This document shows, one piece after another, positions 55,338 through 56,059 of a stretch of DNA of 64,000 nt. Position numbers and translations under genes: made by a program. How positions within the stretch are numbered: position 1 is the stretch's first letter; each line of letters begins with the position of its first letter. This DNA comes from an uncultured Poribacteria bacterium (lineage in GTDB: Bacteria; Poribacteria; WGA-4E; WGA-3G): positions 2,944,001 to 3,008,000 of the forward strand of contig OX638351.1 of the NCBI GenBank assembly GCA_951813565.1. The letters are read 5' to 3'. The notes under the pieces were generated by a model. The model was not told the DNA's origin. It saw nothing but the letters and a program-made list of their open reading frames with translations, and ran no database searches.

Positions 55338-56059
55338 TATAGTGAATTAGAAAGATATGGTAAGAACAATAATTATTGATACACTGTGAATCAAAGCCGA
55401 ATGCGCTTTTTGGCATTCGCCATGATTTGTAGCGTTGATTTCTTGATTTGGTGTATTCTGCCAAAAAGCGCATTCGGCGTTGATTTGGATTTTCGCGCAG
55501 ACAAAGCGCTTCTACAAAGAGGTCTTGCCAATGAGTGGCAACCAGCTAAAGTAAGGTAGGTGCGGTTTCCTAACCGCACCATAGACGTCAATTTAGGGGA
55601 TAAATCCCGTCACAGATTGTAGGGCGGGGTCTCTGTGCCCCGCCATTGCTGATGTATTCAAACAACGGGCGGGCACAGAGACCCGCCTCTACAATCTGTG
55701 ACGGTGTTGTTTGGGTTAAAATGTGTGAAACCTGAAATAAATCCTTAAATTGACACCTATGGTGCGGTTAGGAAACCGCAACCATAGACGTCAATTTAAG
55801 AAATAACGCGTTTGTAGTCGCGCAATTCATTGCCAAATCAACGCAGCATGCGCCAAATCAAGAAATCAACGGTATGAATCATGGCGAATCATGTAGAATA
55901 CCAAAAGCGTATTCTACCAAGCGCATTCGTCTTTAGTCATTCACCGGGTATGAATGCCTTATGGCATTCCCCGTGTGGCATGCTGCGCCTCGGACATTTA
56001 TGGCGTGTTTAAAATCCACATAAGAACAAAATGTCCAAATAATTATGGGTTTCACTATA
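55338..56059. repeat. Stack of nested MITEs, REPs and micro-hairpins
   Basis: TATAGTGAA outer ends; CATAGACGTCAATTTA/TAAATTGACACCTATG element 55580-55761; GTAGGGCGGGGTCTCTGTGCCC REP pair. Confidence 0.7.

Follow-up and report, generated by a model that had tools for sequence, protein, structure and literature searches.

The spread of 20-40-base repeats through bacterial genomes still awaits an explanation. The Nostocaceae SDR1-8 (Elhai et al. 2008, Genome Res 18:1484) are reportedly hairpins of 21-27 nt that show compensatory changes and insert into other repeats as well as into themselves, and an RNA route with target-primed reverse transcription is said to have been proposed for them. Hairpins are also the substrate of IS605, which makes no TSD, and REPs are the targets of IS1397 and IS621. 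According to the available parts of PMC4390886 and PMC5861425, SDR5 is inserted precisely into the palindromic HIP1 target, while the portion available of PMC3184786 treats IS1397 and IS621 as REP-targeting IS elements. For the SDRs and the CGTC-tagged REPs alike, the text available of these sources names no known enzyme.

The window, that is, the whole stretch of DNA analysed here, comprises 64,000 nt of an uncultured Poribacteria bacterium (GCA_951813565.1, contig OX638351.1, positions 2,944,001-3,008,000), and the genome to which it belongs (G000) is a single contig of 5.43 Mb that is 95% complete. It carries a repeated unit of 28-37 bases, made of 1-2 variable bases, the 6-base tail AATCAA and a 9-13-bp hairpin. 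This is very probably a real, formerly mobile micro-element; its past mobility is well supported, and the genus-specific unit is perhaps still mobile. A search of titles and abstract openings, with subscription papers and supplements outside its scope, found no published account of this Poribacteria family.

Judged by its behaviour, the unit appears to work like the Nostoc SDRs, a known but poorly understood kind of repeat met here in another phylum and with another sequence. Both are very small hairpins that insert into themselves and other repeats, choose palindromic targets, are confined to one lineage and have no known enzyme. However, SDRs target HIP1 or heptamer repeats whereas many REP hosts are used here, and the Poribacteria unit exceeds the 21-27 nt of the SDRs and has two junction classes, the likeness being drawn from descriptions only. 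With REP, BIME and REPIN elements and their TnpA-REP, as portrayed in the available text of PMC3333891, PMC8266576, PMC3116915 and PMC6006769, it has in common a short hairpin with a conserved 5' unpaired tag, an intergenic location, hundreds of copies, mosaics, tandem arrays and no clear TSD; unlike them, it is single instead of an inverted doublet, belongs to no REPtron and has REPs as its targets. Membership of the REP/REPIN class was rejected, as the GTAG or GTGG tag 5' of the hairpin is absent and no inspected RAYT gene is flanked by the unit on both sides. The CGTC-tagged REPs (Di Nocera 2013) resemble it in their 8-9-bp stems, short unpaired tag and want of a linked transposase, but they bear a different tag and are mostly dimers, and precise insertion and nesting do not feature in the available text of PMC3733652.

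The unit also resembles IS605 in its hairpin substrate and missing TSD, and IS1397 and IS621 in its REP target, but it possesses one hairpin, no gene and no fixed 4-5-base target. Derivation from IS200/IS605 was discarded on account of the one hairpin instead of two, the variable upstream bases and the IS605 ends of G000, which are unrelated in sequence. The TIR and TSD of a MITE are lacking too, the tail being asymmetric and the junction ambiguous by at most one base.

Unit anatomy and distribution

Strict patterns, whose totals are lower bounds (two window units escape them), retrieved 571 tail-plus-hairpin units and 85 sister units of type 4 from G000; the family is thus dispersed, below about 40 nt and in high copy, in the manner of SDR-like very small mobile repeats. 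The stem-pair figures below, and the share of junctions lying in repeats, count copies, which are not independent events. An earlier note on the window had pictured a single kind of unit, but at least four hairpin types are present, and clean C^G insertion is limited to one junction class. Under the strict patterns G000 holds 404 units of type 1 (10-bp stem, 7-8-nt loop), 160 of type 2 (bulged stem) and 7 of type 3. Type 4, whose tail ends in T, whose stem has 9 bp and whose loop is reversed in orientation, is found in 21 of 24 genus relatives and lies almost always in an arm of another unit (117 copies inspected). A tail hexamer directly precedes a hairpin in 373 of 6900 cases as against 4-7 of 2761-5008 for five control hexamers, an excess that places the motif far from chance.

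The stem covariation reported in the note was borne out, with two-sided changes at five of the ten stem pairs in an alignment of six window units. Genome-wide copies, counted after setting aside positions constrained by the search pattern, show the same compensatory changes that keep SDR-like hairpins: pair 2 is G-C in 362 and A-T in 24, pair 4 is C-G in 213, A-T in 115 and T-A in 50, pair 5 is G-C in 196 and A-T in 193, and pair 6 is A-T in 288 and C-G in 114. The folds of single units have z values between -3.3 and -4.2. Rfam gave no match to the unit in the window, its only hits being two tRNAs; these tRNA genes lie at 42584-42751.

Just 4 of 425 unit loci fall inside ORFs of more than 150 aa, though such ORFs make up 81% of the genome; the four (G000:C1:1295116, 3494872, 3913193 and 4511662) include some that may be spurious ORFs or disrupted IS genes. 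Relative to GC skew, no strand bias was detected among the loci (227 vs 198, p 0.17), the skew itself being irregular. Its cumulative curve in G000 has no clean origin or terminus, perhaps as a trace of numerous inversions, events that could be favoured by opposed units and REPs.

The strict pattern matched in 23 of 24 genus relatives, with 2-310 matches per genome and a 100-fold difference between species, and in none of 16 genomes from three other families of the same order, where the loose pattern gave background only (0-3). Viral contigs yielded no unit match, and genomes of family f2 contain hundreds of the same REP and zero units. Among the matches listed, 79 of the 80 motif-bearing named records were Candidatus Poribacteria and the remaining one an uncultured bacterium. 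Units are abundant in G000, G002, G006, G012, G014 and G017 and scarce in G001, G022 and G009. In G001, although it is 97% complete, no strict unit, Y1 hit or RT hit was obtained, and a REP family present in hundreds among relatives gave 24 matches only. Units were also seen in relatives within REP arrays of at least six copies and in type-4-only double-tailed forms.

Junctions, empty alleles and the nested insert

Insertion can be followed at the nested insert of Table 1, for which the earlier note had given correct coordinates: a host repeat empty at 44399-44430, with a 34-nt insert at 37614-37647 and a 153-nt insert at 55834-55986. The last sits precisely at the C^G of the REP that is empty at 44399, and since the 44k and 55k copies have 24 identical bases to the left and 48 to the right of C^G, they form a close empty/filled pair. 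Its reading as a 34-nt unit with a 119-nt stack in the loop was confirmed as well, the outer unit splitting into 20+14 nt around the inner block (55854-55972). Five units are stacked in it, a type-1 unit (34 nt) outermost, then the type-2 units A (35 nt) and B (net 36 nt) and the type-4 units C and D (net 24 nt each); for unit B, the GA class offers 12 contexts in which the empty form carries one C. Inner-block stages of 35, 71, 95 and 119 nt number 102, 18, 16 and 32 copies in 34, 12, 11 and 15 flank contexts respectively, and the whole 153-nt block has 18 near-copies. As every intermediate stage is present elsewhere in the genome, the stack must have grown stepwise somewhere and then been block-copied, instead of arising from five hits at 55834.

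Genome-wide, 130 copies of this host REP are empty and about 60 are filled, with inserts of 34, 56, 58, 69, 105, 129, 153 nt and longer. The unit is therefore not a fixed part of the host REP, which disposes of the possibility, raised in the note, that the units belong to a larger MITE. The host REP is itself a portion of a composite repeat of about 150 nt (window 44348-44497; 55987-56060) with many copies in relative G006, and the TA-rich terminus of this composite recalls Correia-type MITE ends. The other units listed in the note are all present, except that the inner block at 15563 lacks a second tail and is a rearranged palindrome.

Table 1. Units and host repeats in the window (positions are those of the 64,000-nt stretch)
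Feature	Position	Strand	Remark
Host GTAG-tagged REP, left part	55814-55833	+	last base is C of target C^G; empty form of this REP at 44399-44430
Outer type-1 unit, 5' part	55834-55853	+	CA, tail, left arm of stem and two initial bases of loop
119-nt inner block	55854-55972	+	in C^G of the outer unit's loop
Type-2 unit A	55854-55861 and 55947-55972	+	frame of inner block; 35 nt when empty
Type-2 unit B, GA start	55862-55946	+	directly 3' of unit A tail; one C replaced; net +36
Type-4 unit C	55880-55931	+	tail ends in T, 9-bp stem, reversed loop; 4 bases of unit B left arm replaced; net +24 when empty
Type-4 unit D	55890-55917	+	4 bases of unit C left arm and loop replaced; net +24
Outer type-1 unit, 3' part	55973-55986	+	rest of loop + right arm
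Host REP, right part, and shared downstream repeat	55987-56060	+	near-identical to 44419-44491
Empty allele of host REP	44399-44430	+	C^G between 44418 and 44419
Single 34-nt type-1 unit	37614-37647	+	same host REP; clean C^G; 10-bp hairpin; z -3.3
Type-1 unit, CA start	3205-3238	+	z -4.2
Type-2 unit, 35 nt	41586-41620	-	bulged stem; overlooked in first reading
Two tandem type-1 units	41665-41733	+	different stems; second at C^G re-created by first
Type-1 unit, G start	31079-31111	-	
Type-1 unit, G start	18945-18978	-	8-nt loop; chimeric right flank
Type-1 unit with palindrome in loop	15563-15627	+	palindrome tail-less, rearranged
Composite	10220-10303	+	type-1 unit + part of type-2 unit + type-4 unit
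Two opposed stacks	55388-55487	not assigned	partly degenerate; one common hairpin

The note had further claimed that units sit between C and G with no TSD. This holds for CA-start units, whose tails are preceded by C in 553 of 612 cases, and fails for G-start units (n=349; T 187, C 69, G 67, A 26), so that C^G without base loss is a rule for CA starts only; even there, a one-base duplication of C is indistinguishable from 'no TSD'. After 47 contexts preceding another unit were set aside from 326 distinct junction contexts, 148 CA-start contexts remained, with 58 having an exact empty form, 14 a near-empty one (mostly from two hosts, with A lost or changed) and 76 none, and the joins of this class are base-precise in a dozen hosts. 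In the 131 other contexts, 19 were clean, 33 showed replacement and 79 had no empty form; 16 of the clean ones come from one host family at G^G and three are mutated CA starts. G-start units replace 1-4 host bases, mostly A/T, just 5' of GG. By eye, the A of the GTAG tag is hit in at least five host families, and elsewhere two bases in several hairpin loops or, in one case, most of a loop are replaced. Type-4 units are preceded by 4 bases common with their own tail, which indicates microhomology, and in most cases take the place of 4 host bases. Self-nesting and precise insertion with empty alleles agree with SDR-like repeats; the precision belongs to the CA class, the G and type-4 classes losing 1-4 bases.

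The hairpin-base end is nearly invariant and the tail end variable. The host end to which the hairpin base is joined is in every case a 3' C, as read on the strand opposite the tail. Each CA-class insertion re-creates C^G at the hairpin base, which makes tandem stacks possible, and tandem units with different stems point to serial insertion at such sites. Outer left junctions lie within repeats in 340 of 513 cases, compared with 11773 of 39174 intergenic CG sites (30%). The hosts comprise about 25-30 families, mostly GC-rich REP-type palindromes, a total counted by eye from 153 junction classes. In some copies a unit connects the flanks of two different hosts, and there are hairpins with two tails as well as loops in reversed orientation, all of which argues that units recombine with each other.

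Units have thus inserted many times independently, mostly into REP-type palindromes and each other, and filled hosts were then copied as blocks. The note's very small non-autonomous mobile unit is upheld by empty alleles, many unrelated hosts and self-nesting; its separate insertions stand for a part of the copies, many others being host-plus-unit blocks copied together. The best reading is that the unit multiplied largely by riding on host REPs.

Several junctions are common to different species. No strain-level empty allele was seen in contigs of four runs from four studies, in which contigs break inside units: at 37614-37647 each of the four runs has flanking contigs that terminate within the unit, and 55880-55931 is skipped in contigs of three of the four runs, with 4 other letters between, which probably represent other loci. 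Among five sister species no orthologous empty/filled site emerged, the three compared intergenic regions being devoid of the host repeat altogether.

Candidate enzymes and modes of insertion

Ten Y1 hits were obtained in G000, namely five IS605 TnpA, two IS200-like and three RAYT-like genes, one of the latter broken. RAYTs of G000 lie at G000:C1:242059 and 5071234, and relative G017 has a single RAYT. The repeats flanking them are GTAG-type or other palindromes, with units only inside those and on one side. No Y1/RAYT gene with units on both sides was found in these ten loci or in overlapping sets of 20 and 50 loci of relatives, where single units lie inside REPs beside a few RAYT genes, again on one side only. 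The 32 genes that do have units on both sides include none recognisable as a transposase when read by eye, no gene enclosed by two unit halves, as in an autonomous copy, was found, and the multi-copy proteins of G000 are, by eye, ordinary IS types not bounded by units. IS110 transposases gave no hit in this 95% complete genome, and a non-autonomous IS110 derivative was rejected on that ground and because many unrelated targets are used instead of one fixed target. One tyrosine recombinase was hit; in the IS91 search the control itself gave no match. Three further ideas were abandoned: an integron attC likeness of the tail (crossover one base off), an IS608-type guide reading of the tail (predicted target absent from hosts), and the rule that the first base complements the lost base, which fits three junction classes and fails on all others. 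The IS605 ends of G000 themselves appear to follow the IS608 guide-pairing rule. The genome also has 29 near-identical TnpB copies. Apart from IS605 TnpA, at least seven divergent subgroups of Y1 HUH proteins occur in the genus; several measure 200-290 aa and have no obvious REPs at their flanks.

The earlier note had likened the unit to HUH (RAYT/TnpA) substrates, and this link remains the leading guess even though no inspected Y1 gene has units on both sides. A genus-wide, SDR-like, non-autonomous micro-repeat family combined with a Y1 HUH (TnpA-REP/RAYT) mechanism is, taken whole, a little short of an even chance, and the mechanistic part, a single-strand HUH reaction in trans with end trimming in the imprecise class, is put forward tentatively as somewhat under even. 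The enzyme would be a Y1 HUH protein of TnpA-REP/RAYT type whose gene lies elsewhere and which does not serve the unit alone. On the strand opposite the tail it would nick host DNA, in single-stranded form, 3' of a C; the freed 3'-OH would be joined to the base of the unit hairpin, giving the fixed junction, and the tail end would be joined cleanly at C^G in the CA class or, in the G class, after loss of 1-4 host bases, a protein-linked end having been trimmed by repair. A single HUH cut-and-join involves no base loss, and the loss in the G class accordingly argues against a simple HUH reaction. The proposal is favoured by the cut sites: in the available text, E. coli TnpA-REP cuts the iREP-II site at CC^TAC (PMC3333891) and flexible TnpA-REP cuts C^A and C^C dinucleotides with GTAG or GTGG guides (PMC8266576), and replacement of the A of GTAG corresponds to a join at CC^TAC on the other strand, while the other G-class joins fall, on that strand, at C^A or C^C. 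The match at C^T and C^A is partly expected from composition, since a host site with GG after it always reads as C^N on the opposite strand. A route of excision, processing of the ends and insertion close to a REP already in place is proposed in the available part of PMC3333891. The RAYT-like genes of G000 speak for the HUH model, as do unit counts, which over 25 genomes, kinship and assembly quality ignored, rise with the numbers of one host REP family (rho 0.60, p 0.0015); they are also larger in genomes with a RAYT above the cut-off (p 0.025).

Against the HUH model stand several observations. The unit has no GTAG tag, which TnpA-REP needs according to the available text of PMC3333891 and PMC8266576, and C^G is absent among the cut sites given there. 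Besides the missing flanked Y1 gene, G023, a single contig that is 92% complete, shows 82 matches without any Y1 hit, and G014 has 217 matches and no RAYT over the cut-off. The f2 genomes rich in REPs but devoid of units, the microhomology suggested by type-4 junctions, and the lack of strand bias and of a strain-level empty allele count against it too. Templated repair or template switching, by which a break or stall in a REP hairpin would be healed by the host polymerase copying a unit from elsewhere with 1-4-base microhomology and no dedicated transposase, would account for variable start bases and 1-4-base losses, for the 4-base tail microhomology at all type-4 junctions, for chimeric flanks, reversed loops and double-tailed hairpins, and for the swapping of inner blocks among 11-34 flank contexts; but it leaves the nearly fixed unit ends unexplained, sits badly with a tail conserved across four hairpin types, stems kept by compensatory change and the base-precise CA joins, and is considered fairly unlikely. 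The strict genus limit, the conserved tail and the precise CA class, with the 100-fold differences in counts and the precedent of CGTC-tagged REPs without linked transposase in the available text of PMC3733652, suit a dedicated, unrecognised genus-specific enzyme, such as a diverged HUH, a recombinase or a nuclease-ligase, recognising tail and hairpin and inserting at C^G. This too is unlikely, given no candidate beyond the one tyrosine recombinase, no IS110 and no autonomous copy with unit ends around a gene.

An RNA intermediate, in which a processed 34-nt hairpin RNA would be reverse-transcribed at a nick with a precise hairpin-base end and a variable tail end, matches the junction polarity expected of target priming, and G000 holds two RTs, of which the first neighbours cas1 and a CRISPR array and the second is a DRT4. 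Yet no RT was hit in G006, G012, G014 and G017, four of the six richest genomes, RT presence shows no link with unit counts (p 0.98), and G-T mismatches are not in excess of A-C on the tail strand (35 vs 65 copies), so this route appears quite improbable. A retro-element with RT wherever the unit expanded was rejected accordingly; RT lost or diverged would still be compatible. The first RT, of 465 aa, stands alone between a CRISPR array and cas1 at G000:C1:3988991-3998027, with cas2 and a CARF-like gene nearby (names by reading proteins) and units at both ends of cas1, and similar split RT hits occur in G002, G007 and G013; the second, an antiviral RT of DRT4 type, lies above cut-off at G000:C1:811749-813284. 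A handful of ancient insertions fixed in REPs or MITEs and passively copied since would fit the many identical host-plus-unit blocks, such as the near-copies of the 153-nt block, the junctions common to species and the absence of visible strain polymorphism; however, dozens of events are needed to account for some 25-30 host families, for units inserted into units at several sites and for stacks of different stems, which makes it very improbable.

Meaning for Poribacteria genomes

Returning to the HUH reaction in trans, a bolder and more doubtful picture may be drawn in which the unit is a 34-base hyperparasite without a transposase that captures the nicks made by REP transposases in repeats of their own, carries nested cargo of 119-153 nt and serves as a mobile point of recombination; otherwise the unit would be the substrate of an undescribed enzyme pasting a tail-plus-hairpin oligonucleotide precisely at C^G. 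The unit is apparently among the smallest mobile DNAs, and the Poribacteria family supplies copies by the hundred, numerous empty alleles, a graded series of nested intermediates and junctions of two classes. If borne out, it would define the lower size limit of mobile DNA and a precise single-strand insertion reaction. Because units join flanks of different hosts, the unit may drive rearrangement in Poribacteria.
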